From a virus (taxonomy: Duplodnaviria > Caudoviricetes): DNA of 35,313 nt. Location: the IMG/VR virus record IMGVR_UViG_3300032074_000021, positions 1 through 35,313 of that record; one strand, given 5' to 3'. The position numbers and the translations under genes were made by a program. Shown one piece after another: positions 2,188 to 19,563 of the stretch. Every line of letters begins with the position of its first letter. Within the stretch, counting starts at the first letter, position 1. The notes beneath the pieces were generated by a model. That model was not told the DNA's origin and searched no databases. It worked only from the letters and a program-made list of their open reading frames with translations.

Positions 2188-2420
2188 CAGATGTCGCGCC
2201 GCGCGACCGCGGACACGTCCGTGGGCCCCGTGGTGGTCTTGCGGTTGCGACGGCGGTGCGGGTCGAGGTTGGGCACCAGCAGCCGGCGCGACAGCAGCGC
2301 CGAAAGCCGCCGGGTACCCTTCACGACCGCGCTGGGCACGTCGTCACCCGGCTGGTAGGTCTGACCGTTCATGACGATCTTCCTACCAGCCGAGTACGAC
2401 GTCGGCCTCTTCAGGACCAT
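2187..2420 (-). CDS. Small head-associated hypothetical protein
   Basis: ATG at 2420 overlaps the capsid stop (TGATG); 77 aa; GQTYQPGDDVP motif. Confidence 0.6.
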   Translation of the reverse strand: MVLKRPTSYSAGRKIVMNGQTYQPGDDVPSAVVKGTRRLSALLSRRLLVPNLDPHRRRNRKTTTGPTDVSAVARRDI

Positions 2421-3437: not shown

Positions 3438-3839
3438 TCAGAGGACCCGCAGGACCGGGACCAGCTCGCCAGCACCCGCGGCGATGCCGATGGCCTGGAA
3501 CTTGCCGTTGGCGGCGTCGGTCACGGCGCGGCCGGTCGCGTCCGGGGCCACGAGGTCCCCAGCTGCGATCGCGCCACCGGCAACGACGTTGGACACCCCG
3601 AAGATGCCGACCGTGGCGGCGGCACCCGGTTGCTGGGGCTTGTTCTGCAGGATGCCGACCGTGCGGTCTGTGGCCCCCGTGCAGAGGCCGACCTGGTGCG
3701 CGCCCGTGATCTTCACGAAGCGGTACATCATGCCGGAGTTGGGGACGGCGCTACCGGGCTGGCCGGGGACGCCCGTGTAGATCCCGAGCGACGCATCTGC
3801 GTCGAGCGAGATCGACTTGAGGGACTCTTCGTAGCTCAT
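3438..3839 (-). CDS. Capsid decoration/cement protein (DUF2190-like)
   Basis: 133 aa; YRFVK...GILQNKP...G.S.VVAGGAIAAGD.V..DA.GRAV pattern; immediately upstream of the major capsid gene. Confidence 0.75.
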   Translation of the reverse strand: MSYEESLKSISLDADASLGIYTGVPGQPGSAVPNSGMMYRFVKITGAHQVGLCTGATDRTVGILQNKPQQPGAAATVGIFGVSNVVAGGAIAAGDLVAPDATGRAVTDAANGKFQAIGIAAGAGELVPVLRVL

Positions 3840-3849
3840 CAGGCGCTCC

Positions 3850-4887
3850 TCAGCGGCGGTTCTGCTCGGCCTCGTACTCGTCGTACGCGGCGGGGTTTGC
3901 GGAGAACAGAGCGGTGACGGCCTGCTCCTGGGTCATGTCGGAGTCGGACTTGGCGATGGCCTCACCGGCGATCGCGAAGACCTGGCCCAGGACGTCGGAC
4001 TCCATGGTGCCGCTGTAGCCGATCTCGCTCATCGCGGCCTTGGAGATCTCGCCGTAGGAGGAGAAGAGCCGGTCCAGCGCAGCAACATCGGCCTCGGGCA
4101 GGCTCTGGGCTGCGCGGTACATCAGGCCGCCGATCTCATCGGGGTCCACCGGCAGCTCGTAGCTCTTGGCGAGCTCGGAGAAGCCCTCCTGGTCGCGCTC
4201 CTCCATGAGGAAGGCCACCTGCTCCTCGAGGTCCTCGTTTCGCTTGGCGATGCCCTCGAACTGCTCGAACGCCTTGGCGAACACCTGGTCGCGGTCTGAG
4301 TCGTTCAGCGCCTTGGACAGCTCCTCGAGCACCTGGTCGCCCATCGACTTGCCGACCTTGTGGTTGACGTAGGTCGCCCCGGCTGCGCCACCTCCGGCTG
4401 CGCCGCCGTAGCGGATGCCAGCGCGGCCGCCGGCCGGGATCGCCCGGTACTGCATGTCGGCAGCGGTGCGCAGGCTCTGAGCACGTCGGCCGATCCGCTC
4501 GCCAGCCTCGCGGCCGGTGGCAGCCGTCCGCTCACGAGCCCAGCTGGCCTCGCCGCGGGCCTTCATCCGGCCCAGGCGGCCGGCGGCACGGACCTTGGCC
4601 GGGACGCGGAAGGCCTTGCCGACCTCGTCCTCGAAGCCCTCGTCCTCGCCGCCCTCGTCCGCGCCGTCCTCGACGAAGACGAACTCGTTGCCCTGGTCGT
4701 CGTAGACGGTGTCGCCGTGCTCGAGCTCCTCCTCGAGGACCTCGTTCCCTTCGCCGTCGAAAACGGCCATGTTGTCCTCCTGGTAGCTCTTCGCGATCGC
4801 GACCAGACCGTGCTGGTTGGCTGGCCGGTCCACCAACGAGACCTCGTCGATCTCGAGGTTGGAAAGCCGCTTCACCATACGTCCCAT
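3850..4887 (-). CDS. Scaffolding protein with N-terminal prohead-protease-like segment (EVSLVDRPAN) and an internal basic insert
   Basis: 345 aa; acidic and coiled-coil regions; C-terminal EQAVTALFSANPAAYDEY capsid-binding-type helix; internal AGGAGG RBS with in-frame ATG at 4770. Confidence 0.75.
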   Translation of the reverse strand: MGRMVKRLSNLEIDEVSLVDRPANQHGLVAIAKSYQEDNMAVFDGEGNEVLEEELEHGDTVYDDQGNEFVFVEDGADEGGEDEGFEDEVGKAFRVPAKVRAAGRLGRMKARGEASWARERTAATGREAGERIGRRAQSLRTAADMQYRAIPAGGRAGIRYGGAAGGGAAGATYVNHKVGKSMGDQVLEELSKALNDSDRDQVFAKAFEQFEGIAKRNEDLEEQVAFLMEERDQEGFSELAKSYELPVDPDEIGGLMYRAAQSLPEADVAALDRLFSSYGEISKAAMSEIGYSGTMESDVLGQVFAIAGEAIAKSDSDMTQEQAVTALFSANPAAYDEYEAEQNRR

Positions 4888-4950
4888 GTCGACCTCAGTC
4901 TGAGTGCTGGTAGTGCTGGATGGATGGTACTTCTGAACGACACGCCGTGG

Positions 4951-5577
4951 TTACAGGCGCTTGCCCTTTCGCGCTCCGCTGGGGATCTTGCTGTTGATCT
5001 CGTTGGCCACGACCCGACCCCGCAGTCGGCTTACCCCCAGCGCTCGCCGGCCGTTGTTCTCCTTGAAGGCCGGGCTCTCCCAGATCATCTGGACTCGCCG
5101 AGCCGTCTTGGGCGCGCCGAACGCCTTGAGGACGTCGGACTTGCCGAACGGCCCGGTGCGCAGAGCGGGCGTGGAACCGCGATACAGCTCCAGCCTGGTG
5201 GCCGGGCCGCCCTTGCGGCGCCCGGTGCCGCGCACCAGGTCGTTGCCGTGGCCGATGTGCCGGCCGGTGGGGACCAGCGCTCGGATCACCGTGCTGGCCT
5301 GCGGGTCCAACGGGAGTGCCTTGCCGAACACGACGACCTCGGTGAACGGGTTGATCAGGCTCTTGGCCACGGTCTTGCCCTTCTGCTGGTTGTGGCGGTG
5401 CGCGAGGTAGGCCCCTGTGCCTATCCCGGCACCTACGGGGATCGCGGCCAGGCGTAGCCGCCGGCTAGCGACGTGGGTGGTTGCAGGCTTGGCCGCCTCG
5501 ATGGCCGGCGGCTGGCGCTCGGCGCGTCGCAGGTCCCGCTCGTAGCGCGGCACGAAGGGCTTGGCCCGGCGCCTCAT
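4951..5577 (-). CDS. Basic glycine-zipper head-region protein
   Basis: ATG at 5577 (TGATG overlap); 208 aa; LAAIPVGAGIGTGAYLA segment; VAKS, FGKA and FGKS motifs. Confidence 0.6.
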   Translation of the reverse strand: MRRRAKPFVPRYERDLRRAERQPPAIEAAKPATTHVASRRLRLAAIPVGAGIGTGAYLAHRHNQQKGKTVAKSLINPFTEVVVFGKALPLDPQASTVIRALVPTGRHIGHGNDLVRGTGRRKGGPATRLELYRGSTPALRTGPFGKSDVLKAFGAPKTARRVQMIWESPAFKENNGRRALGVSRLRGRVVANEINSKIPSGARKGKRL

Positions 5578-6533
5578 CAGTTCCACGCCCGTCCGCGCGC
5601 GCCCTCGGCGTGCTGACGCACCAGCCCGGCGCCGGCCACCCCAGCGGTACCGCCGCCGAGGTAGGCCAGGTCCTGCGGGGAGGCCGCAACCGCGCGGACC
5701 AAGCCCGGACGCAGCTTGCGCGCCGAGCTCAGGGCACGGGTGGTCTTGCGGGTGCCGTGCACGCCGCGCGCCATGCTCGCTACACCGCCTATGGCCAACG
5801 CGGCCTCGGCGGCCCCAAGACGACGCTGGCGACGGTGCTCGGGGTCGTAGTGCCGGGCCTTGCCCACGGTCTGCTTGGCGGCCTGCCGTTTGCGCCGCTG
5901 AGCAGCGCGCAAGTCGCGCTCGGAAGCCTTCATCTCCTTGCCGGGTCCGTGCGTGCCAGCAACCAGCATGCCCAGACCTGCGACAGCCCCGGCCGTTGGC
6001 GCCAGCTCGGCGACACCCAGGCGACCTGCGGTGCGGAACAGGCCCGCCCGGCGTGGCATCGTGGTGACGTCGTAGGCCTTGCCCCTCTTCGGGGCATGGC
6101 GCATCGCAGGGTCATCAGCGTGGAACGGGGTGCTGGGGTCCCAGGATGCCTTGCTCAGCGCGGCGATCTTGGCTCGGTTCCGCGCGGTGGCCTTCTTCTG
6201 CTCATGCCGAGCCAACGGCGTCACGCCGGCAGTCGCGGCGAAGGTAGCCCCGCCCATGCCGAGCGTGATCTTGCCCAGCTTGGCCTGAGTGCGGTGCTCG
6301 GCCTCGGTGTACCCATGCCTGCGGTTCGCGTAGTCGGTCACGCTGTCGGTGTCCTTGTTGCGCGGAATGCCGCCGTGGTACCCCTTGGCGCCGCGCTGCA
6401 GGACCGTCCCGCGAATCGCCTCTTCCGCCCTACGGGGTGCCATCTTGGCGATCGGGGCGTCCGAGAGCGGGGCATCCTCGAGGTCGGTCAGCTTGCGCCC
6501 GCGGGTGCCGCCGTTGCCGTAGCGAGCAGTCAT
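5577..6533 (-). CDS. Basic glycine-zipper head-region protein (multi-module)
   Basis: 318 aa; overlapping start and stop with neighbours; several Gly/Ala hydrophobic helices; IAKM, LSKA and VGKA motifs. Confidence 0.65.
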   Translation of the reverse strand: MTARYGNGGTRGRKLTDLEDAPLSDAPIAKMAPRRAEEAIRGTVLQRGAKGYHGGIPRNKDTDSVTDYANRRHGYTEAEHRTQAKLGKITLGMGGATFAATAGVTPLARHEQKKATARNRAKIAALSKASWDPSTPFHADDPAMRHAPKRGKAYDVTTMPRRAGLFRTAGRLGVAELAPTAGAVAGLGMLVAGTHGPGKEMKASERDLRAAQRRKRQAAKQTVGKARHYDPEHRRQRRLGAAEAALAIGGVASMARGVHGTRKTTRALSSARKLRPGLVRAVAASPQDLAYLGGGTAGVAGAGLVRQHAEGARGRAWN

Positions 6534-7486
6534 CAGAAACTCCTGTATGCCACGGGCGTCGAGACCTGGCGGTAGCTGGTGCGGCGGATGGGGTGTGCGT
6601 GCCCTGCGAGAAGGATGCCAGCCGCGGTGGCCACATCGCCGCGAAGCGGGGCCGGAACCGCCAAGACGGCGGCGTTGACGGCCTGAACCTGCCGGACCGC
6701 ACGCTCGCCTGGAGCGGTCCCGCGACGCAGCACGCCCTGGGCGGACTGGGCCAGCTGCAGGGCCCGTATGGCCGCGGCGTCATCACGGCGCTGGGACGCC
6801 TTGACGCCCCGCTTGAGGGCCGCGCCGAGCATCCGGGAGCGGCCCAGCCCCCAGGCACCGATACCGATGGCCGCACCTGTCTCCAGCGTGCGCACCGGGG
6901 AAGTCCTGCGTTCCTGGTAGAACAGCGCCTTGCCGACGTCGTGACGGTGCGCTGCCGCGTCCGCACCCAGCGCAAGGCCCACCCCGCCGCCGATGGCCGC
7001 GCCGTTCAGCACCTTGCCCTTGGTCCCGGACATGTGCCCCAGCGCCCGCTTGTACTTGGCCGCCGGGAGCCGCTTGGGGTAGTTGCGGTAGAAGCTCGGC
7101 TGGTCGGCAGGTGCCGGCTTCCCGCCGTTGGGCACGTTGTAGAACTTGCGGTGCTGGCGGAAGATCTTCTCCTTCTGCGAGCGGGACAGGCCGTTGTCCG
7201 TGCGCTCGGCCTTGTGGCCGGCGGCGCGGATACCGAAGCCGGTGCCCACCCAGGCACCCTGACCGCCGGCGGCGCCCACGCCCAGAGCGGCGACCCGGTC
7301 CGCGCGGCGCTTGGCGCGCTGGTCTCGGTGACGGTCCAGCGCCGGAGCCTGCCCGGCGACGCCGGTTGCCGCTCCCGCACCGGAGACGCCGATGGACCAC
7401 TGCGCGGGGTGACGGCGGATCGAGCCGGAGGCCAGCTTCAGCGGGTTGGCCGCCTTGCTGACCGGCTGGAGTCGTCGCCCGCTCAT
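6533..7486 (-). CDS. Basic glycine-zipper head-region protein (multi-module)
   Basis: ATG at 7486 (ATGA overlap with the protease stop); 317 aa; VSKA and VGKA motifs. Confidence 0.65.
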   Translation of the reverse strand: MSGRRLQPVSKAANPLKLASGSIRRHPAQWSIGVSGAGAATGVAGQAPALDRHRDQRAKRRADRVAALGVGAAGGQGAWVGTGFGIRAAGHKAERTDNGLSRSQKEKIFRQHRKFYNVPNGGKPAPADQPSFYRNYPKRLPAAKYKRALGHMSGTKGKVLNGAAIGGGVGLALGADAAAHRHDVGKALFYQERRTSPVRTLETGAAIGIGAWGLGRSRMLGAALKRGVKASQRRDDAAAIRALQLAQSAQGVLRRGTAPGERAVRQVQAVNAAVLAVPAPLRGDVATAAGILLAGHAHPIRRTSYRQVSTPVAYRSF

Positions 7487-8778
7487 GCGGTGTACCCCAT
7501 CAGCTCGTCGAGGTCGTGGTCCTTGCGGATGCCCTTGCCGTGGATCGAGAAGCCGGTGCGCTCGCCCTTGCGCACCAGGTCCCAGGTCACTGGGTCGTGC
7601 ACCTTGTAGCCGACCCACCAGCCGCGCGGGAAGTCATCCGGCAGGCCCATCTTGGCGATCTTGTCGTCGGTGAAGACCATCGACTCGACCAGGTCGGAGA
7701 CCTTGTGCGCGTCCTGGCCGTTGCGCCGGTGCATGTCCCCGCCGACGCGGGACTTGTGCACGTAGGCGTATGCCGCGTCCTCGATGTCCTCGGGGGAGAT
7801 GTAGTCGCCCTGACGGTCCACCACCGGCTGGCCGTTGGCCTTGACCACGCTGGCCCAACCGAAGGCCAGGTGCTTGTCGTCGTCGAACTTGGAGAACTCG
7901 CCGGCCCACTCGACCGTGCCCTCCTGCTCGCCTTGCTCGTCGCGCTTGCCGTAGGCGTAGGCGTCGGGCACGTAGGCACCCTGGGCGCCCTGCGAGCGCT
8001 GGCGCAGCGAGCCGCCCAGCTTGTGCGCCCCGGCCAGCCCGGCGCCGCCGGCCAGCACCTTGCCCGAGGTGGTCGAGAGCATCCGGCCGACGTCGTTGCC
8101 CGCCTTGCGCGCGTTCGAGTTGGCCTTGGCGTTTCCCATCGCCTCGGCCTGGCTGGTCGGGCGCCCGGCCGCGCGGTCCGCGCGAGTAACCGCCCGCTGG
8201 GCGAGCTCGGCCTTGGCCGGTGGGGTACCAGGGGTCGGGCCCGAGGCGGTCACCGTCTTGAGCATCCCCCGGTGCAGCCGGCGGAAGCCCTCGGCCACGT
8301 CGTCCAGCTTGGGCATCGCCTTGGAGGTGGGCTGCTTCTCCTTCTGGGCCAGCGTGCGGTTGATCGCGACGTCGCCGCCCATGTTCACCGCCTGGGTGCC
8401 GAGCGCGCCGGCCGCGAGCGCCGCGCCGACCTTGCCGCCCTTGCTGGAGATCGGGCTGGGGATCTTGCGGCCGGTGGCGTACAGGCCGCGCAGGATCTTG
8501 CCGCCCTCCTTGAGGCGCTCGTCGCGCAGCGCCTGACCGGTGGCCATCCCAGCGGCGGTCAGGCCCAGCACGTTGGAGCCCTGCTCGAACCTGCGGCGCA
8601 TCGAGGTGCCCGTGTTGGCGTGCAGGTCGGCCTGGTCGGGGCCGCTCTTGATGACCTCGTCCCAGATCACGTCGGCGTCCACCAGCTCGCCGTAGAGGGT
8701 CTTGCACAGTGCGACGAACTCCGGGGTCGCTCCCGCCCGCGCGCGCTCGGCCTTGCTGACTGCCATGTCGGACATCAT
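7483..8778 (-). CDS. Capsid maturation protease, C-terminal XkdF-like serine protease domain preceded by glycine-zipper modules
   Basis: FSKFDDDKHLAFGWASV...DRQGD...GDMH...LVES...WWVGYKV...W..V.KGERTGFSIHG matches the XkdF signature (His and GFS Ser); AGGAG RBS before ATG 8778 (alternative GTG 8811). Confidence 0.85.
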   Translation of the reverse strand: MMSDMAVSKAERARAGATPEFVALCKTLYGELVDADVIWDEVIKSGPDQADLHANTGTSMRRRFEQGSNVLGLTAAGMATGQALRDERLKEGGKILRGLYATGRKIPSPISSKGGKVGAALAAGALGTQAVNMGGDVAINRTLAQKEKQPTSKAMPKLDDVAEGFRRLHRGMLKTVTASGPTPGTPPAKAELAQRAVTRADRAAGRPTSQAEAMGNAKANSNARKAGNDVGRMLSTTSGKVLAGGAGLAGAHKLGGSLRQRSQGAQGAYVPDAYAYGKRDEQGEQEGTVEWAGEFSKFDDDKHLAFGWASVVKANGQPVVDRQGDYISPEDIEDAAYAYVHKSRVGGDMHRRNGQDAHKVSDLVESMVFTDDKIAKMGLPDDFPRGWWVGYKVHDPVTWDLVRKGERTGFSIHGKGIRKDHDLDELMGYTA

Positions 8779-8814
8779 CGCGGGCATCTCCTGCTGGGTG
8801 CTGTAGGACACGCG

Positions 8815-11697
8815 TCAGCCGTTGCTGACGCCATAGCGGTGCACGATCGGGCTGGTGACCTTGAAGATCTGCAGACGGGGGTTGGTCACCACCCCCTCGG
8901 CGCCGGGGGTTCTGACGTCGACCAGCGTACTCAGCGGGTGGTCGCGCAGGTGCACCTTGATGTCGCGGGCCCGGCACTCCCCGATCAGCTGGAGCTGCAG
9001 CGGGGCGGTGAAGTCGACGTCGCGCTCGTGCTCGAGCAGGATCTGCGGGGACGCGGGCTTGTCGTTGCCGTAGAAGACCAGCCCGTGGCCCTCGTGGACG
9101 ATGTCGACCTGGTCCAGGTCGCTGTGGGTGTCGAACAGCTCGGCGATCTTCTGGGCCACCGCCTCGTCGTCCAGCACCGCGCCGACCCGCATGGTGCCGA
9201 TGGCGATCTTGGCGAACTCGCCCTGGGAGGTGATGTCGGCGTCGACGTTGTAGGCCATCTGGTTGGGCAGCGCCTCGACCCTGGACTCCCCGGTCTGGGC
9301 CACCGCCTGGCGCCCGAGGTAGCCCAGGTCGACCGGCTCGCCGGCGAACAGGCGGGCCACCTCGTCGTCTTCCAGGCTGTCGGTGACCATCTCGAAGGTG
9401 GGCGTGGTCATCAGCCGGTAGGCGTGCGCGTCGGACAGGTCGGGGAGCACCCGGGCCGGACGCTTCCCGGTGCTAGCCACCGGAGCCATCTTCTGCTGCA
9501 CAGCGTGGACCAGCGCCGTCTGACGGGCCTTCTGGCGTACGGCGGCTAGCCGGTTCTGGGCCACCGGCTGTACCGCCACCTTGGCCCGGCTCAGGGGCTG
9601 TACCCGCTGTACCTGCTGGACCTGCTGTACCTGCTGTACCTGCTGGACCTGCTGTACCTGCTGGGTGCGCTGGACCTGCTGGGTGCGCTGCGGGGTAGCC
9701 ACTACGACCTGTTCGTCGGTGTCCGTGAACTTGCCGTCCTCATCGCGCGGGTGCAGCGCGGCGAACCGGAAGGCGTCACGCCCCTGCAGCGCCTTGCCGA
9801 CGTCGCCTGGCCCCTCGAGGATCTCGTGCACCTCGTCCTCATCGACTGCCCGCAGGTACCAGCGGTTGACGACCAGCTCGTTGTCGGCGTCGTAGAACTG
9901 CTCAGGGCGACCGGCCATGCCACCGGGCGGGGTGACCACCTTGTAGGCCTGGTTGGGATCGAGCACGTACTCGGTGTGCGTGTTCTTGAAGCCCGGCCCT
10001 TCCTCGGTCCCACGGGCGTCGGTCTCGATGACGTACTCATCCACCGTCGGCATCGGACGGTGGTAGGGGTCGCCCACGTCCGCCGGCAGATAGTGGACGA
10101 TGTCCATCCCGCCGAGATCTTCGCTGCCCACCGGCTGGTAGGTGGGCAGTACGTAGGTGTGCTCCTGGAGCTCGTCCTCATCCACCCGCGGCAACTGCTC
10201 AGACGAAGTACCGCGGGCCTCCGAGGCGAGCAGCTCTCGCCGGCGGCTCTCGATGTAGTCGTGGACTGCGCGCTCGTCGCCTTGCAGATCCCCGGGGTGG
10301 ATGTGGTCGACGTGCGGGCTGATGTAGCTGTCCGTCGAGTCGTGGACGTCCTCGGCCAGCATGCGACGGGCGTACTCGGCCTCGGACCCGCCGGCGCGCT
10401 CGGGCGCCTGGGCTATCTGCAGCAGGTGACCGAGCCGGAACACCCGGGTGCTGGGGTCCTTCTGGATGCCCGCCTGCTGAGCGAGCTTGCTGCGGAAGGT
10501 CGCCGCGCTGTTGGGGTTCAGCGCGGTGGGGCTGCCGGGCATCTGGATGACCAGCGGCTGGCCGATGTCGTAGTAGCCCTCGCCGCTGTCGTTGGGGTTC
10601 GGCGGCTTGAGCAGGTCGGGCAGGTGCCCGTAGTCCAGCGGCCGGGCCACCGGGACCAGCGCGGTGCCCGGCGCGGTTTCCTGGTCCACCGGCATACGAC
10701 CGGCGTTGATCTTCTGGGCCACCCGCTGAAGCTTCTGCCGCTGCGCTGCGACCTTCTGCTTGGGCAGCGCCACCTTGGGCATGGCGACCTTGGGCACCAG
10801 CTTGCCCCGGCGCTGCTGCTGTACGCGCTGTACGCGCTGGACCTGCTGGGTCTGCTGCACCTGCTGGGTCTGCTGCACCTGCTGGCGCTGTGGTGCCTGG
10901 GTCGGCACGGTCGGCTGAGCCGGTGCGGTGGCTACCTCCGGGGCGGCCTGGCCACCCAGCCCCAACCGGCTGCGCAGCTGGGCCAGCACGCTGGGCCGAG
11001 CGACCGTCGCCGGGGCGGGCGCCTCGGCCTGTGCCTCGCGAACTGGCGGCACTCCGGTCGGCGGCGCGTCCACGAAGCGTCCGTCCGGACCGCGCGGGTG
11101 CTCCCGGTCCTCCCAGCGCTCGGAGGTGGTCACCGGGCCGCGCGGCGCCTTGGAGAACTCCTCCTTGACCTGGTTCACCTCGGCCTGCACGGTCTTGGCC
11201 ACGTAGGACATCAGGGCCCGGTCGGCGGCGTCGTTCAGCGCCACCGGGTTGGCCCGGGGATCGGCGGCCATGGTGGCGTAGGTGCCGAGCTCCTTGTGCG
11301 GCACGCCGTAGACCGCAGCGGCACGCGAGGCGGCCACCGGCGGCGAGACGCCCTTGGTGACCGCGGTGCGGTAGAGCGCGAGCGCGCCGTACTCGGCATC
11401 ATCGAGCAGGTCTCGCACCAGCAGACCGGCATAGGCCGGGTCCAGCGACTTGGAGATCGCGTCCACCAGCGGCCCGGCGAAGCGCTCGCGGCTTTGCGCC
11501 ATGGCGCTGACCATGCCGCTCTCGCTGGGCAGGGCGCCCTTGGCCACCGTCTCGCAGGCCGCGGCGCCGGCGCGGTGCGCCGCCAGCAGCGAGGCACCGA
11601 GGTCGCCGCGGGCGTCGCCGTCCGGCTCGAGCAGCGCGAGCACGACGGCGTCGGGGTCCAGGGTGGGACGCGAAGGTGCCCACCAGCGATCGCTCAT
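8815..11697 (-). CDS. Large head-region protein with two HPRxxxG[RK]F motifs and (QQV)n tracts; probable internal virion protein
   Basis: 960 aa, ATGA overlap; lies between portal and protease, where MuF-like minor head proteins usually sit. Confidence 0.65.
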   Translation of the reverse strand: MSDRWWAPSRPTLDPDAVVLALLEPDGDARGDLGASLLAAHRAGAAACETVAKGALPSESGMVSAMAQSRERFAGPLVDAISKSLDPAYAGLLVRDLLDDAEYGALALYRTAVTKGVSPPVAASRAAAVYGVPHKELGTYATMAADPRANPVALNDAADRALMSYVAKTVQAEVNQVKEEFSKAPRGPVTTSERWEDREHPRGPDGRFVDAPPTGVPPVREAQAEAPAPATVARPSVLAQLRSRLGLGGQAAPEVATAPAQPTVPTQAPQRQQVQQTQQVQQTQQVQRVQRVQQQRRGKLVPKVAMPKVALPKQKVAAQRQKLQRVAQKINAGRMPVDQETAPGTALVPVARPLDYGHLPDLLKPPNPNDSGEGYYDIGQPLVIQMPGSPTALNPNSAATFRSKLAQQAGIQKDPSTRVFRLGHLLQIAQAPERAGGSEAEYARRMLAEDVHDSTDSYISPHVDHIHPGDLQGDERAVHDYIESRRRELLASEARGTSSEQLPRVDEDELQEHTYVLPTYQPVGSEDLGGMDIVHYLPADVGDPYHRPMPTVDEYVIETDARGTEEGPGFKNTHTEYVLDPNQAYKVVTPPGGMAGRPEQFYDADNELVVNRWYLRAVDEDEVHEILEGPGDVGKALQGRDAFRFAALHPRDEDGKFTDTDEQVVVATPQRTQQVQRTQQVQQVQQVQQVQQVQQVQRVQPLSRAKVAVQPVAQNRLAAVRQKARQTALVHAVQQKMAPVASTGKRPARVLPDLSDAHAYRLMTTPTFEMVTDSLEDDEVARLFAGEPVDLGYLGRQAVAQTGESRVEALPNQMAYNVDADITSQGEFAKIAIGTMRVGAVLDDEAVAQKIAELFDTHSDLDQVDIVHEGHGLVFYGNDKPASPQILLEHERDVDFTAPLQLQLIGECRARDIKVHLRDHPLSTLVDVRTPGAEGVVTNPRLQIFKVTSPIVHRYGVSNG
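9598..9690 (-). repeat. 9-bp tandem repeat encoding (QQV/QRT/QRV)n
   Basis: About 10 imperfect CAGCAGGTx units visible in the sequence. Confidence 0.85.
10812..10890 (-). repeat. Second Gln-rich tandem tract (QQV/QQT/QRV)n
   Basis: QRQQVQQTQQVQQTQQVQRVQRVQQQ. Confidence 0.8.
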
Positions 11698-12116
11698 TGC
11701 CCGAGCGCCTCGGTAGCCGCGGGCTCGACCACGTATCGGGCCAGCGCCGGGTCTCCTATCGCGGTGTGCATGAACCTCACGCTGAGTCGCAGACCGTCGG
11801 CCGCCGCGGCAACCCGGCTGTGGCCGCCACCACCGATGTTCTTGGCGGCCGTCTCGATGTCGTCCAACGCAGAGTCCATCGCCGGGAACTGGAAGGAGTC
11901 GGGGAGCACCTGCTCGCCCGATAGCGCCATCTGTGTCTGCATGTCCGCGGGTATACCAGACATCGCGTGGCCGAGCTTGAGCTTGAGCTGCTCGGCCCGC
12001 TCCGGGGCGAGCCTGCCGACGGAGACCAGCTCGTCAAGACGCTGGTCGATGTCGGAGAACGGGCGCCACAGCATGTCCTTGGCGTACGTGCGAGCGTGCC
12101 TGCCCACCGCCTCCAT
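11694..12116 (-). CDS. Hypothetical protein; probably expressed as the -1 frameshift extension of 12164..15442
   Basis: 140 aa from ATG 12116 with no clear RBS; the frame stays open upstream to a TGA at 12345-12347, just beyond a slippery heptamer. Confidence 0.6.
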   Translation of the reverse strand: MEAVGRHARTYAKDMLWRPFSDIDQRLDELVSVGRLAPERAEQLKLKLGHAMSGIPADMQTQMALSGEQVLPDSFQFPAMDSALDDIETAAKNIGGGGHSRVAAAADGLRLSVRFMHTAIGDPALARYVVEPAATEALGQ

Positions 12117-12163
12117 GACGGCATACTGCTCGTCCGCACTCGGACCAGCGGTTACGCCAGCGG

Positions 12164-15100
12164 TTACACCAGTGGACGGCTGGGGTCCTGGTAGCGGCGC
12201 AGCAGGGCGTCCCGCAGGCCCTTGCTCACCGGGCTGTCGGGAGGAGCCAGCGCCAGAACTCTGCCGACGGCCCGGAGCTCCGACCGGCTGGGCCGACCGC
12301 GCTTGGTCACGTCCGTACCGGGCTTGAGTACTTTTGGGCCAGCATCACTGGCGCTGCGGCCACCGGTCAGCTGGTGCAGCTCCTGGGCGGCGTGCCGGGC
12401 AGCCACGAAGGACCACGCCTTCTGCTGGTTCTCCAGCTGCGCGGCGGCGACCTTGTCCTTGCCCATCGAGGCGTCCCAGACGTCGCGCGTCTTGACGACC
12501 TGGTCGGCGATGGCATCAGGGTCGTAGGCATCTGCGCTGAACTGCTTGATGGCCGAGGCCAGCCCGCTGTTGGTGATCTCGTACTGCTTGAGCGCGGCGT
12601 CGTAGTCGGCCGGGTCGGCGCTGTAGTCCAGGTCGTCGAACCGCTGCGGCTTGGGGTCGCGCTCAGCCGGCGGGGTGGTCACCGGGTCGCCCGTGCGCGG
12701 CGCGAACGGGTCGCGCAGCGCGAACAGGTCGTGCAACTGCTGGGAGGCGGTGTCGACCCCTGCGGTGCTGAACCCGAACCGCTCGCCGCCGCCCTCGAGC
12801 AGGTCGGGCAGCTGGTCGATCGCGTTGAGCATCTGCTGACGCTGGTGCGGGGTGGCGTCCTTGACCAGCCAGCGGCTCATCTCCTTGATGGCCCCCTCTT
12901 GGCTGCCCGTGGAGTCCATCAGCTTGCCCCACTTCCAGTTGGCGTAAGCCAACGGGTGAGCGGTCTCGGCCTCGTGCTCGTCGGAGGCAGCGGTCACCAC
13001 CGGTATCTGGTAGACGGGGACCATGGCCAGGCTGTTCTCCACCGCACGCTCGACCGCGCGCAGGTAGGCCGGGTCGTCGGCGCTGACGGCCTGCTGCAGG
13101 GTGCGCTTGGGCTTGGCCGGGCCCAGCGCGCCTCCCGTTAGCGCGGGAGCGGAGCTCGTCTTGCGCTGCGCCGGCTCGGTGCCGTCGGCCTGCACGCCCT
13201 CACGGTCCAGCTCGGCGGTGCTGCGCGCGGTGGGGACGTGTGGGGCGCCGTGGCGCTGGGCCGCCTGCGCGTTGGTCTGCCCCGGCTCGGTGTAGCCCTT
13301 GTCGCTGCCGGCGTAGCGGCGCAGCATGTCCGGGTTGCCCAGCGCGCGGGCGCTCAGCCACTCCGGCAGCGGCTGCCAGGTGGCCTGACGGATGTAGAAG
13401 GGGAACTCCTGCTTGAGGGTCTTCAGGGCGCGGTCGTAGCCCGGCCCGTCCAGCCGCAGCTCGCGGACCCGGTCGCCGCTGACCTTGATCCGGTACTCCC
13501 GGGCCGCCTCGTCGGCGATGCGCGCACTCTCCTGCGCGGACAGGAACGACCCAGCCTGACGCCGGCTCTCGGCCTCCCCCCTGACCTGGGTGGCGGCGTA
13601 GTGCTGAGCCGCCTCCTCGATCTCGTCCTCGCTGTCCCCGCCCTGGGCCCCCTCGAACCGGGCGCGCTCGGTCAGCTGGTTGACGTAGTTCTGGTAGAGG
13701 TCCTTGTCGCCGTTGGCTGCCGCCAGCGCCTGCCGGCGGATGTGCGAGGTCTGCTCGGGGGTGAGGTCCTGGAGGTAGAGGTCGCTGGTGGCGATGGTGT
13801 GCAGCAGCTTGCCGTAGCGCTGGATCATCCGCAGCGCCTTGTCGCTGTAGCGCCGACCGCCGCGCACGTCGGGGTCGAACTCCACGGTGAACACCCCGGA
13901 GTTGGAGACCACCTGGATCTGGCGAGCCCCGGTGAGCAGCCCGGTGTAGAGGTCCTCGGTGGTCGGGCCACCGGAGGCGCGAGTGCGCACGTACTGCCCG
14001 CCCTGCAGGCTGGACAGGTTGCGCAGGTCGAAGGGCAGGTAGTGATCGCCGTTGTACCCCTGTGCCTGGGTGACCACCCGCCCGTCGGCGTTGATGATGA
14101 CGCCCTGGGAGGGCGGCAGCTCCCCGGACTCCACCGACAGCTCGGTGAGCTCGCGGCTGGGCAGCACGTTCTCGCGCAGCAGCGCGGCCACCGCGGCGTC
14201 CCCGCGCATCCCGAGCTTGCGCTGGTCGGGGGTGATCTTGCGCTGGTCCAGCCAGTAGGCGTTGGTCAGGCTGACCGGGTCGTCCTGCGCGGTGGGGCGC
14301 GCGGCGGCCGCGACCATCTGCTGTCGGACCCGGGCCTTGCGCTCCGGGTCTTCGGTGTCCAGCGCATTGGCCTGCGCGTTGGCCCGGGAGACCTGGCTGA
14401 CCAGGTCTGGGTCGGGGCGCTTCTCGGTGCCCCGGTAGCGGTAGGCGGTGCGCCGGATGCCCGGCGCGAGCACCTTCTCGGCCTGCGGGCCCAGATCGCC
14501 GATCAGCTGGGCGAGCCCGCCGACGGTGTTGACGGTCGAGCCCGGCGCGGAGATGCCTGCCAGCAGGCCGCCGGTCATGGACATGCGCCGGTAGCCCTGC
14601 CGGTCCCCGGGGCTGGTGGGCCGGTTCCACTCGGCCGCGTTCTCGTCCTGGTTGACCGGGTTGCCCTGGGCGTCCATCGGCAGCGCGTTCAGCAGCCGGG
14701 TCGCGCCTCGGTCCGGCCCGAAGGTGGAGGCGATTAGGTCCAGGGCGGCACGCTGCTTGGCGTTGCTCGCCGGGATGTCGCCCTTGTCCAGGCTGATGGC
14801 GGTCAGCAGCGTGTTCGGGTCGCTGTTGGCGATGCCCTGCAGCCGCTGCGCCAGGTTGTCCACCCGGGCCGGGTTGGTGATCTTGTGGGTGGCGCCGGGA
14901 ATCGGCCGGCCCGTGTTCGGGTCGAGCCGGATGTGGTGCAGCACCAGTGGGGTGTCGGGCTGGACCAACCCGGCACGCTTCATCCGCTCAACCGCGCTCA
15001 GGGCCTCCTGGTGGTGGCCCGACTGGCGGGTGTCCACCGGCTGGTTGGGGTCGGTCTGCGAGCCCACCGAGACGGTGGTGAACCGGCCGCTGCCGTCGCG

Positions 15101-15442
15101 CGGGTGCTTGCGGTTGAACATGCTCAGCAGGGAGCCGGACAGCGACTTGGCGACGTATTCGTCGAGCACGGCCAAGCCCTCGGCGTACTCGAGGTCGACC
15201 GGCTCGTTCACGCCGTCCAGCGCCTTGCCCACCTGGCTGCGCAGCATGATCGAGCGCGCCTTGGCCACCACGTCGCCCATGTTGGTCAGCACGGCCGGGC
15301 CGATCTCGGGCCAGACCTGCTCGGACTGGTCGGCCAGCGACTCGAACAGCCCCAGCTGGACCAGCATCCGGGCGGCCCGGGGGTCCTGTCGCTCGACCTG
15401 GGCGACGGCCTTGAGCACACCGGTGACCGGCTGCAACGTCAT
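12164..15442 (-). CDS. Large head-region protein (1092 aa) with HPRDGSGRF motif and degenerate JAB-like domain; probable internal virion protein
   Basis: ATG at 15442 overlaps upstream stop (ATGA); VAKA, VGKA, VAKS and VSKG motifs. Confidence 0.7.
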   Translation of the reverse strand: MTLQPVTGVLKAVAQVERQDPRAARMLVQLGLFESLADQSEQVWPEIGPAVLTNMGDVVAKARSIMLRSQVGKALDGVNEPVDLEYAEGLAVLDEYVAKSLSGSLLSMFNRKHPRDGSGRFTTVSVGSQTDPNQPVDTRQSGHHQEALSAVERMKRAGLVQPDTPLVLHHIRLDPNTGRPIPGATHKITNPARVDNLAQRLQGIANSDPNTLLTAISLDKGDIPASNAKQRAALDLIASTFGPDRGATRLLNALPMDAQGNPVNQDENAAEWNRPTSPGDRQGYRRMSMTGGLLAGISAPGSTVNTVGGLAQLIGDLGPQAEKVLAPGIRRTAYRYRGTEKRPDPDLVSQVSRANAQANALDTEDPERKARVRQQMVAAAARPTAQDDPVSLTNAYWLDQRKITPDQRKLGMRGDAAVAALLRENVLPSRELTELSVESGELPPSQGVIINADGRVVTQAQGYNGDHYLPFDLRNLSSLQGGQYVRTRASGGPTTEDLYTGLLTGARQIQVVSNSGVFTVEFDPDVRGGRRYSDKALRMIQRYGKLLHTIATSDLYLQDLTPEQTSHIRRQALAAANGDKDLYQNYVNQLTERARFEGAQGGDSEDEIEEAAQHYAATQVRGEAESRRQAGSFLSAQESARIADEAAREYRIKVSGDRVRELRLDGPGYDRALKTLKQEFPFYIRQATWQPLPEWLSARALGNPDMLRRYAGSDKGYTEPGQTNAQAAQRHGAPHVPTARSTAELDREGVQADGTEPAQRKTSSAPALTGGALGPAKPKRTLQQAVSADDPAYLRAVERAVENSLAMVPVYQIPVVTAASDEHEAETAHPLAYANWKWGKLMDSTGSQEGAIKEMSRWLVKDATPHQRQQMLNAIDQLPDLLEGGGERFGFSTAGVDTASQQLHDLFALRDPFAPRTGDPVTTPPAERDPKPQRFDDLDYSADPADYDAALKQYEITNSGLASAIKQFSADAYDPDAIADQVVKTRDVWDASMGKDKVAAAQLENQQKAWSFVAARHAAQELHQLTGGRSASDAGPKVLKPGTDVTKRGRPSRSELRAVGRVLALAPPDSPVSKGLRDALLRRYQDPSRPLV
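12332..12338 (-). other. Putative programmed -1 ribosomal frameshift site C CCA AAA
   Basis: X XXY YYZ heptamer in the correct phase (GGC CCA AAA GTA); the -1 frame opens two codons upstream and runs into 11694..12116. Confidence 0.7.
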
Positions 15443-15966
15443 GAACGCACTCCTGGGGTGTAGGCCCGCATCCGGGACAAGGCAGATCCTGCCACGCCGG
15501 CTGGGGAGTGGGCGTAGCTCGCCCGGCGCGAGCGGGCGTGCTCGCCATACAGCTCGCTGGCCCCGCCACCGGCTGCCGAGGCCAGCGCCGCGGTCTCCGC
15601 GTGGTGGGGGTTGATCTTGCGCAGCACCGGCGCCTTGGCGATGAGGCGGCCGGTGCGCTTGCCGCGGCCAGCCAGCAGCGCCGCCGCGGAGGCGGTCGCC
15701 CCGGCCAGCCCGATGTTGCGCCCCACCTCGGCGGAGGCGGCCCGGCGCTGCCACTTCTCGCTCTTCTTGCCGCCGGCGGCGATGTAGCGCGCCTCGTAGG
15801 CCTTCATCCGCTCATTGCGGTCCAGGTCCTTGGGCAGGGTGCCGCGGGTGTCGTAGCGACGGGCCAGCTCGTGCGCCTGCCGCTCGCTCATCGTGGTGTC
15901 CAGCTTGGCCACCGCCGCGTCGCCGCGCCGGGTCATCGAGCCCACCATGCCCACTCGCCCGTTCAT
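15439..15966 (-). CDS. Basic glycine-zipper head-region protein
   Basis: 175 aa; ATGA overlaps; IGLAGATASAAALLAG segment; VAKL motif. Confidence 0.65.
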   Translation of the reverse strand: MNGRVGMVGSMTRRGDAAVAKLDTTMSERQAHELARRYDTRGTLPKDLDRNERMKAYEARYIAAGGKKSEKWQRRAASAEVGRNIGLAGATASAAALLAGRGKRTGRLIAKAPVLRKINPHHAETAALASAAGGGASELYGEHARSRRASYAHSPAGVAGSALSRMRAYTPGVRS

Positions 15967-17639
15967 GCCAGCCCTCCGCGCACCGTCGTGGTCGTGATCC
16001 CCATTACTCCTCGAGTCTGACGCAGGTAGCCCTTGCGCATCGACGGGGCGCGCCGCCTCCCGACGCCGCCCACGGCAGGCAGCCGCAGCCCGGCCTTGGC
16101 CACCGCCTGGGCCTCCTTGCGCTGGATCGCAGCACCAGTGAAGGAGTTGATCCCGCCGATCCCGGCGCCCGCGGTCAGCAGCGGCATCTGCACCGCGCGC
16201 AGCCGCCCGCGCATCTTGGGCCGCATCCCCGGCGTCTTGGAGGCGGCCAGCGCAGCCAGCGATCCCAGACCCGTGCTGCCGGTCATCATCGACATCGCTG
16301 CGTTGTGCTCCTTGCGCCGGGACAGCTTGCGCTTGTCCTTGACCGTCAGGTTGGCGCCGTCCACCTTGCTCACCCGGGTGCCGTGCCGGGCGCTCTGGGT
16401 GCCCTTGGCCAGCTTGGCCTTGTAGCGGTCCTCGGCCGAGAGGGCGGCGCCGTAGCCGGCCTGCCCGCCGATCTGGCCGCCGACCGCACCGCCGACCAGC
16501 AGGCCCGCGGCCGCCACCTTGGGGTTGTGCAGGAAGGGCTTGGCCACCGCCTTGGGCACCTTGGGGTGCGCCGCGACCCGCTCCAGCATCCCGGGCCCGG
16601 TCTTGGGCTTCAGCCCGACCACCCGGCGCGCCCGGGCCGCCCCGGCGTCGGCCGCGTCGGAGAGCTTCTCGCTGCCCCGGCGAAAGGCAGGGCTGTGCCG
16701 GGCCAGGGTGTGCGCAGCAGCCACCCCGGCCACGTTGCCGGCCAGCCCGCCCGCCTGGTTTCCGCCGTACTGCATCGCCGCGGTGCGCCCGCGCATCGAG
16801 GGCGGGGCCATCCTGGCGGCCTGCGCGGCCTGGGCGACGTCGCCGATCACCGGGGCGCCGCCCACCGCGGCGATGCGGGCCCGCTTCTGGCGATGGGTCA
16901 TGTCCTCGCCGTAGTAGGCCGCCGCCTTGCCCACCGAGGACGGGACAATGGAGGCGCGGTTGCGCCTAGCGTCGCCACGACGGGCATCCACCGTGGCGGC
17001 GCGAGCACTGGGGCGTACCGGCTTGGTCTTGGCCCGACGCACCCCGGTCGGGGTCACCACGTACTTGCCGTGGCTGGCGTGGGAGATGATCTTGGACTGC
17101 AGCGGCAGCGCAGCGCTGCCCGCGGCCATACCGGCCGTCGAGGCCAGCCCCGCACGCAACCCGCCGGGGACCTTGGTCCGGCCCAGCCCCAGATGGGCTA
17201 GCCCGCCAGCAGCAGAGCCGACACCGATGCCGGCCAGGTAGTTGCCCACCGCCAGCTTGGCCGGGGCCGGCTCCCGCAGTCCCTGGTTGCGCTCGTGCAG
17301 GCTCTCGCGCACACCCTTGACGCCCTCGCGCAGCAGCGAGGGCCTCTTGTCGTCCCGGTCGCGCTTGTCCACCCGGCGGCTGGGGTCGCTGTGCAGTAGC
17401 CGGGCGGTGCCGACCGCAGCCGGGGGCACCGCGAAGGCGCTCAGCCCGGCGGCGGTCAGGTAGCGCCCACGCCCGGCCACCTTGCCCGGGCGCAGCAACC
17501 GCAGCTCCTGGCCGATACGAGGACGCTTGGACTGGCCGTAGGCCCGCTCGAGCGCGCTATGGCGCAGCGCCCCGGCACCACCGACGCCGGCCAGCCCCAC
17601 CCCGGCGGTTGCCGCATCCCGGCGCCGGTCGGTGCTCAT
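15963..17639 (-). CDS. Basic glycine-zipper head-region protein (about 4 modules)
   Basis: ATG at 17639 (ATGA overlap); 558 aa; repeated GxxxG helices separated by VDKR, VGKA, VSKV and VAKA. Confidence 0.7.
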   Translation of the reverse strand: MSTDRRRDAATAGVGLAGVGGAGALRHSALERAYGQSKRPRIGQELRLLRPGKVAGRGRYLTAAGLSAFAVPPAAVGTARLLHSDPSRRVDKRDRDDKRPSLLREGVKGVRESLHERNQGLREPAPAKLAVGNYLAGIGVGSAAGGLAHLGLGRTKVPGGLRAGLASTAGMAAGSAALPLQSKIISHASHGKYVVTPTGVRRAKTKPVRPSARAATVDARRGDARRNRASIVPSSVGKAAAYYGEDMTHRQKRARIAAVGGAPVIGDVAQAAQAARMAPPSMRGRTAAMQYGGNQAGGLAGNVAGVAAAHTLARHSPAFRRGSEKLSDAADAGAARARRVVGLKPKTGPGMLERVAAHPKVPKAVAKPFLHNPKVAAAGLLVGGAVGGQIGGQAGYGAALSAEDRYKAKLAKGTQSARHGTRVSKVDGANLTVKDKRKLSRRKEHNAAMSMMTGSTGLGSLAALAASKTPGMRPKMRGRLRAVQMPLLTAGAGIGGINSFTGAAIQRKEAQAVAKAGLRLPAVGGVGRRRAPSMRKGYLRQTRGVMGITTTTVRGGLA

Positions 17640-17944
17640 CGGCCTGCCGCCTTGGCGTAGGTCAGGGCGATGTCCGAGAGCGTCTCGGCCGGGCTCTGGT
17701 TGTTGATGCGCGCCTGGGCGGCCACAAGCGCGTCCACCCAGATGGTGCTGGCGCTGAACAGCAGCGCCCACGCCGAGCCGATGGTGAACCCCGCCTCGAC
17801 CGCGTCGCGCAGGAAGCCGTTGATCATCAGCGCGGCGTCGGCGGCGTTGCCGTCCTGGCGCGCCTTGACCACGCCGAGCACCACTGGCTCGGCCAGGGAC
17901 AGCAGCTTGCCGTCCTCGGTGTGGTCGTGTCCGCAGGGGTACAT
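17636..17944 (-). CDS. Hypothetical protein
   Basis: 102 aa; TGATG overlap with the portal stop. Confidence 0.6.
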   Translation of the reverse strand: MYPCGHDHTEDGKLLSLAEPVVLGVVKARQDGNAADAALMINGFLRDAVEAGFTIGSAWALLFSASTIWVDALVAAQARINNQSPAETLSDIALTYAKAAGR

Positions 17945-19563
17945 CAGCGACCTCTTCCTGCCGGCAGCGAACGCTGGGCCGGCTGCTGTGCCTGTTGCTG
18001 GGTCTGCAGCTGGGCCTGCTGCTGCTGCTGCGCCGCGCTCTGCAGCTGCTGCTGCTGGCCCATGGTGTCCGGGGTGTGCTCGCCGGCCACCACGGCGCGC
18101 TCCGCGGCCATCGCCTGGGCCAGCCCGGAGCGCGCGGCGAGGTAGCGGGTCTGGTTCTCGGCGAACCGCGCCGCGTCGTCCACCCGCGCCTCGCGGCGCT
18201 TGGTCTGCATCTCGGTGTCGGAGAGCTCCGGCAGCCCTGCCGCACGGCGCAGGTAGCGCTCCATGTCGGCATCCGGGCCCCAGTTGAAGCCCAGCCCGGC
18301 GGTCGCGGTGAGGAACTGCGAGAGCTGGCCGAGGTCGGGCGCGTCGACGTTGCCGGGCTGGATCGTCGGCAGCGAGGAAGGCTTCCAGCCGTTGGCAGCG
18401 AACAGCCGCGGGATGGCGTGCCGGTTGAACACCTCGGCGACGCTGGAGGCGGTGGCGTTCAGCGCCTCGCGGAAGATGCCGGTCTTGTCCACGTGCAGGT
18501 TGTAGGTGCCGGTGTTGCCCTGGTGGCCGATCATGATGAAGTCGGCCAGCACGGTCATCAACTGGCGCTGCTCGTAGCGCTGGATCAACTCGTTGGTGGA
18601 GAAGGCCCGGGCGCCGCCGGAGCCGAGCAGCTCGAACTTGAACAGCGGCTGCTTGGTGTCCTGGTCGTAGGCGGTGGGGAAGACCAGCCCCTCCTGCTCG
18701 TTGCGCCGGATGGAGCGCACCATGCGCTTCATGGCCTCGACCATCTTGTACTGCTCGGTGCCCGGGCGGGCGCGCATGTACTCGCTGGGCACCGAGACCA
18801 TCGGCAGCCCGGCCAGGTCGCGCTCGACGCCCACGCTCTCGAACTCCTCGAGGCGCTTCTTGTAGTACCAGGGCCGGTAGGAGGTGCGCAGGATGGAGCG
18901 CCCCTCGGGGTTGCCCTTGTGGTGCCCGGCCCGGAACAGCAGCGAGCGGGTGATCGGCAGCACCCGGGTCTTGTAGTCCGGCGGGGCCAGCTGGACCATC
19001 GCCTGCACGTCGCCGCTGTCGTCGAAGATCCAGCGCTGCAGCGTCTCCTGGGAGCGGATGGGCATCTTGCGCCAGCCGATCAGGCCGTCGGAGTACTTGC
19101 TGCGGTGCCGCCCGTCGCTCTGCCAGGGTCCCATCCGGCGCTTGTAGACGATCTCGTGCCAGGACCAGCCGTACTGCAGGCAGGTCAGGATCTCCTGGAT
19201 GATGTCGTCCCAGGAGGTGCTCATGTCGTCCATGCAGGTCTCGACCAGCTTGGCCGCCTTGGCGTCCTCGGCGGTCTTGCCGCCGGCCACCACCGGCCAG
19301 TCCACCCCGCGCAGCAGCTGCAGGATGGAGAACAGCAGCGCGCCGGTGATCGGGTCGTTGTCGCCCATCTCCCGGTAGACCTGCACCGCCTTGCGGCCGC
19401 GCAGCTGCGGCAGGAACTCCTCATCGACGTAGCCCGCGGCCCGCTTCAGGCCGGTGGTGCCGAGCTCGACGAAGGGCGAGCTGGAGGAGTCGATCTGCCT
19501 GACCTCAGCGACGCTCTGCTCGTCCGCCATTTCAGCGGGGGTGGTGTACCTGGTCCCGGCCAC
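17944..19563 (-). CDS. Portal protein (DUF935 / Mu gp29-like)
   Basis: 539 aa; L.YGWSWHEIVYK, GNPEGRSILR..YRPWYYK...GVERDLAGLP and N..AIPRLF..N motifs; AGGAG RBS; Gln-rich C-tail. Confidence 0.9.
   Translation of the reverse strand: MAGTRYTTPAEMADEQSVAEVRQIDSSSSPFVELGTTGLKRAAGYVDEEFLPQLRGRKAVQVYREMGDNDPITGALLFSILQLLRGVDWPVVAGGKTAEDAKAAKLVETCMDDMSTSWDDIIQEILTCLQYGWSWHEIVYKRRMGPWQSDGRHRSKYSDGLIGWRKMPIRSQETLQRWIFDDSGDVQAMVQLAPPDYKTRVLPITRSLLFRAGHHKGNPEGRSILRTSYRPWYYKKRLEEFESVGVERDLAGLPMVSVPSEYMRARPGTEQYKMVEAMKRMVRSIRRNEQEGLVFPTAYDQDTKQPLFKFELLGSGGARAFSTNELIQRYEQRQLMTVLADFIMIGHQGNTGTYNLHVDKTGIFREALNATASSVAEVFNRHAIPRLFAANGWKPSSLPTIQPGNVDAPDLGQLSQFLTATAGLGFNWGPDADMERYLRRAAGLPELSDTEMQTKRREARVDDAARFAENQTRYLAARSGLAQAMAAERAVVAGEHTPDTMGQQQQLQSAAQQQQQAQLQTQQQAQQPAQRSLPAGRGR

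Follow-up and report, generated by a model that had tools for sequence, protein, structure and literature searches.

The window analyzed here is the whole 35,313-nucleotide stretch of IMG/VR record IMGVR_UViG_3300032074_000021, a 35-kb part of a tailed-phage genome with a G+C content of ~70%. On its minus strand, genes for an endolysin, an HNH protein, terminase, a fibre, and the portal are followed by a block of 11 open reading frames (ORFs), and then by the decoration, major capsid, and head-tail genes. Our subject is this block, which encodes a scaffold and an XkdF-family prohead protease and in which a short motif ending in lysine (Lys), [VILF][SAG]K, recurs. The motif probably marks the positions at which the protease cuts. 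The head genes referred to first are:

17944..19563, minus strand: portal protein, Mu/P23-45-like, 0 of 19 Lys in the motif (PF06074, E 7e-29; phrog_113)
7483..8811, minus strand: XkdF-family prohead protease, with a 300-aa N-extension and a catalytic domain at residues 305-427 (PF14550, E 2e-17)
3850..4887, minus strand: scaffold protein, with 9 sites and a variable basic insert between K91 and K180 (homologue alignment)
3438..3839, minus strand: decoration/cement protein, motif-free (PF09956)
2420..3418, minus strand: major capsid protein, lambda gpE-like, without a propeptide, 0 of 16 Lys in the motif (phrog_1005, E 6e-85)

The portal protein shares no more than 47% identity with an uncultured record and no more than 44% with Arthrobacter phages. 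Among 50,697 phage records, the scaffold and the 1092-aa block protein have no match and the best capsid match is 43%; no capsid relative is present among 185,579 prokaryote genomes. IMG/VR holds many relatives (capsid identity 58-86%), including several contigs of 67-80 kb. One relative carries a tape-measure-like gene for a protein of 2031 residues (locus L079, 14756-20851), in which 18 of 104 Lys fall in the motif, through either helix bias or further processing. The phage is probably a siphovirus of ~70 kb, and its host group would be the actinobacteria. The window contains no promoter-like site and no tRNA, and terminators occur at chance level.

Within the 11 block ORFs, the motif holds 38 of 210 Lys (12.0 expected from shuffles), compared with 7 of 188 (10.6 expected) in the remaining 38 ORFs called. 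These counts use corrected starts (ATGA overlaps, codon bias): 17639 for the ORF that ends at 15963, 15442 for that ending at 12164, and 7486 for that ending at 6533. An earlier note on this DNA had proposed a per-Lys comparison of the block with other genes, and this comparison bears out the enrichment (Fisher p 5e-6), which persists when the scaffold is removed (29 of 197, p 2e-4). The portal, capsid, and decoration proteins have zero sites of this narrow motif. Patterns ending in R, Q, E, D, N, or T instead of K show no comparable excess in the window; the Glu-ending form occurs 7 times versus 13.0 expected. The motifs quoted in the note are present in the ORFs to which it assigned them, including 9 of the 13 scaffold Lys. 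Its phrase "nearly every ORF" comes down to 9 of the 11, as ORFs 11694-12116 and 17636-17944 have none, and its placement of the sites at compositional boundaries has no significance in the window (35 versus 158 Lys, p 0.21). Because the pattern was read off this same sequence, p-values from the window are post hoc, and relatives were therefore used as the real test.

For the scaffold, the test was made with the best 120 of 332 homologues, the window's own protein included. These carry 877 of 1640 Lys in the motif. Lys is kept in at least 87% of aligned rows at 8 of the 9 sites (for example, K192 in 119 of 119, K33 in 111 of 117, and K205 in 113 of 119) and at K215 in 63 of 119; K98, K109, and K177, which lie in the insert, are not conserved. 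Thus, the conservation that the earlier note took as its check holds for all nine scaffold sites, while it fails for several other sites quoted there (see below). The P2 residue varies widely among scaffolds, and the family rule is therefore [VILFM]-x-K-[SAG], or hxK for short. In scaffolds, the ratio of observed to expected counts (O/E) is 7.8 for the Lys motif versus 0.59 for an arginine (Arg) control. Similarly studded scaffolds are found in gut Firmicute-type phages and in the cultured phages Laroye, ValentiniPuff, Ottawa, CRP-6, RcZahn, and Gilson; in Ottawa gp98, 9 of 19 Lys lie in hxK[SAG]. Judged from these sequences, the studded scaffold is a general, family-wide trait of such head modules. 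On this point the note's reading was overstated, since the scaffold signature is also present in cultured phages that lack such a block.

The remaining block proteins, none of which gives a significant family match in Pfam, PHROGs, or NCBIfam, are:

17636..17944, minus strand: 102-aa hypothetical protein, no motif (motif count)
15963..17639, minus strand: 558-aa basic (net +69), Gly/Ala-rich modular protein with 5 motifs (sequence, alignments)
15439..15966, minus strand: 175-aa basic protein with an N-terminal leader closed by K21, hxK in 4 of 4 homologues (alignments)
12164..15442, minus strand: 1092-aa family-wide protein (585 homologue clusters)
15080..15106, minus strand: HPRxxxGxF (HPR) tag of the 1092-aa protein, 14 residues past site K99 (sequence)
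13871..14113, minus strand: predicted alpha/beta domain in the core of the 1092-aa protein, weakly JAB/deaminase-like (model; likeness to PDB entries not significant)
11694..12116, minus strand: 140-aa protein without the motif (domain scan of relatives)
8815..11697, minus strand: 960-aa protein, a helical N-domain with four sites and then two segments (alignments)
11074..11100, minus strand: HPR tag 1 of the 960-aa protein, after K183 (alignments)
9727..9753, minus strand: HPR tag 2 of the 960-aa protein, after K635 (alignments)
6533..7486, minus strand: 317-aa basic modular protein with a conserved C-terminal module opened by K186, hxK in 3 of 3 (alignments)
5577..6533, minus strand: 318-aa basic modular protein; K225 opens a family-wide module, YDPE, at 5577-5849 (alignments)
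4951..5586, minus strand: 211-aa basic modular protein; K75, K89, and K149 are kept in 2-3 aligned homologues (alignments)

In these proteins the signal is positional. Across the relatives, whose block set comprises 284 de-duplicated proteins (310 before), the motif is enriched 3- to 8-fold at termini or before recurring modules and depleted ~8-fold within modules, with Arg controls near 1. The 1092-aa protein consists of an N-domain with K61, K73, and K99, the HPR tag, a site-free core, and a C-terminal site, K1074. In its family (best 150 of 585 homologues), O/E for the motif reaches 8.25 ahead of the HPR tag (37 proteins in which the tag was found) and 3.3 over the final 45 residues but falls to 0.13 in the core of 400 residues (133 proteins with the anchor). 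When the window's own protein is left out, the core contains 18 motifs where 143 are expected, and the controls give 0.81 for Arg, 1.03 for Glu, and 0.95 for Gln. The interior of the YDPE module has 1 motif versus 17 expected (30 proteins), and two segments of the 960-aa family have 0 versus 10 and 3 versus 8 (9 proteins each). At module starts, in a pool that included the window's own proteins, hxK precedes the YDPE module in 28 of 36 cases (background 0.12) and the HPR tag in 38 of 42 (background 0.27), and 10 of 19 starts of a leader termed SAFGV lie just behind a site. Among 1092-aa homologues, 35 of 37 HPR tags have hxK within 22 residues upstream; likewise, each segment of the 960-aa protein opens with hxK followed by HPRxxxGxF. 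Sites are thus kept at edges and purged inside, a pattern predicted by exposure to a protease rather than by composition or helix periodicity.

The YDPE module usually forms the last ~100-150 residues of proteins whose lengths range from 186 to 821 residues, and the gap between the protease and scaffold genes holds 0-4 genes (64 loci). Modules thus come and go and change position as units bounded by sites. In bulk, protease extensions have an O/E of 1.3-1.5 and the 960-aa family one of 1.7-2.1; tail genes and pre-portal genes of the relatives give 1.08 and 1.16. Leader sites occur in 16 of 105 basic block proteins (13.1 expected). Genes between the capsid and adaptor genes of relatives have a site within the first 25 residues in 36 of 108 cases (10.1 expected). 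The same interval contains a second cluster of motif-led basic proteins with SAFGV-type leaders, for example at L004, 15300-15917.

A further positional clue lies in the extension of the protease itself:

8614..8655, minus strand: site V53-I-K55, then an 11-residue copy of the major capsid N-terminus (matrix scan, offset test)

This near copy scores 23.7 bits on a matrix to which the window's capsid itself contributed. Scores of at least 10 bits are found in 7 of 51 proteases of relatives and in 0 of 233 other block proteins. Of 44 protease extensions, 22 contain a looser form of the mimic exactly two residues after the Lys of hxK, and in these extensions it never occurs at another offset; shuffles give 0.005. 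A cut after K55 would give the same register as that of the capsid N-terminus minus its Met, and the fixed offset thus points to Lys as the scissile position.

The assignment of the protease is firm by family (PF14550, 63.7 bits versus a gathering cut-off of 24), and His361 and the GFS serine, Ser422, are present in at least 90% of 67 sequences. In the protease model, with a predicted local distance difference test (pLDDT) score of 85, the chain stops just after the serine strand. The best structural match is T4 gp21 (5jbl; Z 7.6, root-mean-square deviation [rmsd] 3.7, 109 aligned), followed by the varicella-zoster virus protease (Z 5.8, rmsd 2.6, 89 aligned). Foldseek ranks herpes proteases first, above E 0.1 (E 0.15 for the human cytomegalovirus protease). 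That these matches fall below firm thresholds is attributed to the absence of the last hairpin from the model. The hairpin expected after the catalytic serine is not on the protease chain; it is predicted to begin the scaffold gene, 2.6 kb away:

4789..4887, minus strand: scaffold residues 1-33, the predicted missing C-terminal hairpin of the protease, closed by site K33 (predicted complex, Gilson gp30)

A predicted complex of the protease core with scaffold residues 1-34 scores 0.69 (best control, 0.03), with runs agreeing in at least 83% of contacts, a partner pLDDT of at least 62, and scaffold residues 7-18 placed along protease residues 421-430. The mark used for such complexes is reached by 51 of 78 solved pairs and by 2 of 108 mismatched pairs, although halves of split genes tend to pass through likeness to solved structures. 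Scaffold residues 2-25 give weak matches (E 3-9) to 30 records, of which 28 are Streptomyces phages, and in every annotated record the match falls at the annotated maturation protease. In one Streptomyces phage protein, Gilson gp30, the serine motif, hairpin, hxK site, and scaffold are present in one chain. These models predict that scaffold residues 1-33 supply the missing hairpin and suggest that the XkdF protease has the T4 gp21/herpes protease fold. As site K33 lies directly behind the hairpin, self-cleavage there would release the enzyme from the scaffold. By-eye reading of Laroye and Ottawa finds a gene with a C-terminal protease-like segment that is annotated as an aldolase or RNA ligase.

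Taken together, the sequence comparison shows positional enrichment, interior depletion, Lys specificity, and a split gene layout, and the reading that it favors as probable is that hxK marks cuts made after Lys by the XkdF protease in capsid maturation, in a large family of uncultured phages. The earlier idea that the protease matures polyproteins stands to this extent: the motif behaves like an XkdF cut site and most block proteins are composed of motif-bounded modules. The estimate of about ten precursors was too high, as about nine proteins carry the motif and not every match is a conserved site. The note also passed over the split hairpin and the capsid mimic in the protease extension. 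In the proposed pathway, block proteins would be packaged and cleaved as follows. The protease, predicted to be whole only on the scaffold within the prohead, would shred the scaffold at its nine sites, remove helical N-terminal propeptides from two large proteins to free HPR-tagged domains, and separate basic, Gly/Ala-rich modules of 60-240 residues. It would also cut its own extension, exposing the mimic of the capsid N-terminus. Basic modules might then remain inside with the DNA, like the basic internal proteins of T4, and the large domains might be ejected into the host; these last two steps are the most tentative.

Several observations weigh against this reading. Of the 29 window sites outside the scaffold, 24 are covered by pairwise alignments and 5 lie outside any alignment. 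Some covered sites are not conserved, namely protease K20 (Lys in 0 of 3 aligned), K830 of the 960-aa protein, K367 and K515 of the 558-aa protein, and K61 of the 1092-aa protein (1 of 11). The protease sequence FSKF (K308), listed in the note among its motifs, lies at the start of the catalytic domain, where 99 of 101 homologues have Lys, and its role may be structural; the domain itself holds conserved hxK[SAG] (O/E 3.4) for which the same may apply. Bulk O/E is only 1.05-1.3 in the basic and remaining block proteins of relatives and in the 1092-aa family (1.11 for the narrow and 1.23 for the broad pattern in basic proteins; 1.11 and 1.05 in the 1092-aa family). This weak average is explained by edge enrichment and interior depletion, which cancel. 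Tape-measure-like proteins reach 2.35 (n=3; Arg control 1.69), and helical periodicity can supply part of the signal. Homologues share ancestry, so that p-values overstate their independence. As to the fold, a Z of 7.6 is within the range of unrelated models, and Foldseek gives no match with E <0.001. Finally, ~80% of the head proteins of phage SPN3US are uncut (PMC10052503).

An extended version of this reading is doubtful, though it deserves mention. It would make the block a self-gating, programmable cargo system used by a family of hundreds of uncultured phages, in which the hairpin lent by the scaffold switches the protease on and its removal releases the protease, docking occurs through the copy of the capsid N-terminus, and shuffled, Lys-bounded cationic glycine-zipper peptides together with HPR domains are injected against host membrane or defences. 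If it were true, a code of four residues would allow virion cargo to be read, and also to be written.

Less likely still is that cutting is confined to the scaffold, the protease, and a few propeptides, and that the small basic proteins are non-virion or uncut accessory proteins, with scattered matches that are partly chance. The weak bulk enrichment and the unaligned and unconserved window sites speak for such limited cutting, as do the unrelated genes in relatives' blocks (AAA ATPases, Acb2/Tad1, Tad2, ferritin), mostly without a leader site. However, the basic YDPE module, opened by hxK and nearly cleared of it inside, needs exposure to the protease. The chances are slightly lower again that the motif is a docking tag, recruiting proteins into the prohead through the scaffold or shell and rarely or never cut. 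Repeats along the whole scaffold would suit multivalent binding, and in T4 a targeting sequence and a cut site share one short peptide and are separable (PMC9026906). But a docking tag need not vanish from module interiors, and a scissile bond would fit both the small residue that follows Lys and the constant offset of the capsid mimic. Finally, a by-product of amphipathic helices or composition without specific function, to which the excess in tape-measure-like proteins and within the protease fold would lend itself, as would the DUF1996 protein outside the block (21564-22454, with a signal-peptide-like start and 4 of 13 Lys in the motif, perhaps by chance), is highly improbable, given the scaffold Arg control, the location of many sites in unalignable linkers, and a Lys-specific, eightfold depletion in a largely helical core that already contradicts it.

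As for the likely cargo, cutting at all 38 sites would yield 49 computed pieces, and those of the small block proteins are basic and Gly/Ala-rich with moderately hydrophobic stretches, and they resemble the basic internal proteins of T4 in their charge (PMC9026906). In the 558-aa protein, K238 and K425 are partly to well conserved. The likeliest, though least supported, roles are that basic pieces bind DNA and large domains are ejected. The alpha/beta domain of the 1092-aa protein gives weak Foldseek rows to a deaminase and STAMBPL1/AMSH (E 0.14-0.58), and this small domain of the core also gives BFVD rows to phage "minor capsid" proteins (E 4e-4 to 1e-3). In the JAB metal-binding motif, which we take to be HxH, the expected His pair reads R-x-R in the 1092-aa alignment. 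A 611-residue core model tried with VIA-align matched only generic helical hairpins; PDB sequence searches found nothing for the protease or this core, and an ESM Atlas search gave no usable match.

A domain scan of relatives' block proteins (118 of 193 eligible) found 11 MuF, 11 AAA, 2 Acb2/Tad1, 1 Tad2, 1 ferritin, and 1 DUF6321 protein, with weak glycine-zipper matches in 3 of the 118. The MuF proteins examined occupy the slot of the 960-aa protein, which has no Phage_Mu_F match in Pfam at E 0.1. In many relatives the block includes an AAA ATPase with an AAA_lid_6 domain (L007, 6517-7365, and ten more loci). Wherever its position was mapped, it falls between the two large proteins, a place taken in the window and its nearest relatives by a short, unrelated gene. 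Directly behind the prohead protease, relatives carry genes for Acb2/Tad1, Tad2, or ferritin-like proteins (L107, 4047-4283; L115, 2125-2355; L124, 5115-5339; L106, 3808-4242). The L107 Acb2/Tad1 protein opens with a 7-residue leader closing in hxK, but of three such anti-defence genes it is the only one with a leader site, and tagged anti-defence cargo is not claimed. Other features stand apart. Behind the HPR tags of the 960-aa protein are Gln/Val-rich repeat tracts (9581-9700 and 10760-10900), and the portal C-terminus is also Gln-rich. Between terminase and portal, a fibre/structural gene (22477-25278) with a C-terminal H-type lectin domain is accompanied by putative lysis membrane genes.

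One review calls XkdF proteases unrelated to the SH-clan proteases (PMC7824862). By contrast, our model suggests a shared fold, completed by a hairpin that the scaffold lends, and if true, this would explain the nature of the XkdF proteases. In T4 and the giant phiKZ-like phages, maturation of internal cargo by a protease is well documented, with Glu specificity (PMC9026906, PMC10052503). If the reading is correct, mid-sized tailed phages mature cargo by a Lys code that extends over at least a quarter of their late genes, and edge enrichment with interior depletion would offer a means of recognizing the mature virion proteins that orphan genes encode. The cleavage rule can already be tested in cultured phages that have this protease-scaffold pair. 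No paper was found on XkdF cleavage specificity, a split hairpin, or such a cargo block, in searches that were thin for subscription journals.

Among known systems, T4 (gp21, gp22, IPI-III, Alt, and the capsid targeting sequence) offers a like protease fold and a short site with a hydrophobic P3. It also has a shredded scaffold and small, basic, poorly conserved internal proteins, as here (PMC9026906, PMC5694885). However, T4 cuts after Glu, while P1 of the window motif is Lys; T4 cargo carries one 10-residue leader per protein, while the window cargo is multi-module; and the window has a capsid protein without a site, a split protease, and a probable siphovirus of ~70 kb. On sequence grounds the system falls outside that of T4 in one defining trait, Glu specificity. 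The long N-terminal propeptides with redundant sites that are cut by phiKZ gp175 and SPN3US gp245 (S/A-X-E, A-X-E) resemble the N-domains of the 960-aa and 1092-aa proteins (PMC10052503, PMC9026906). Yet these are giant myoviruses with Glu specificity whose portal and capsid proteins are cut, while those of the window have no narrow-motif site.

HK97 gp4 is similar in cutting after Lys and before a small residue, and differs in being a single-chain enzyme, with a scaffold fused to the capsid protein and no internal cargo block. Lys/Ser cleavage of the capsid protein reportedly also occurs in A511 and phage K. The HK97 cut lies at K103/S104 (PMC10275583). The PF14550 head modules of CRP-6 (Roseobacter), RcZahn (Rhodobacter), Laroye and Ottawa (Arthrobacter), and ValentiniPuff (Microbacterium) have a scaffold that opens like the hairpin and is studded with hxK[SAG], but no block of motif-bounded basic modules in the regions read. 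In ValentiniPuff (L240) and Ottawa (L245), the interval from portal to scaffold contains long series of small genes, mostly motif-free where read. MuF-fused or polyvalent head proteins carry variable domains on a head protein between portal and protease, as here (PMC5512222), but the 960-aa protein, unlike them, has no MuF match, and the cargo domains match no library family. By analogy, the best reading of the system would be head maturation of the T4/phiKZ/SPN3US type with an HK97-like specificity for Lys.

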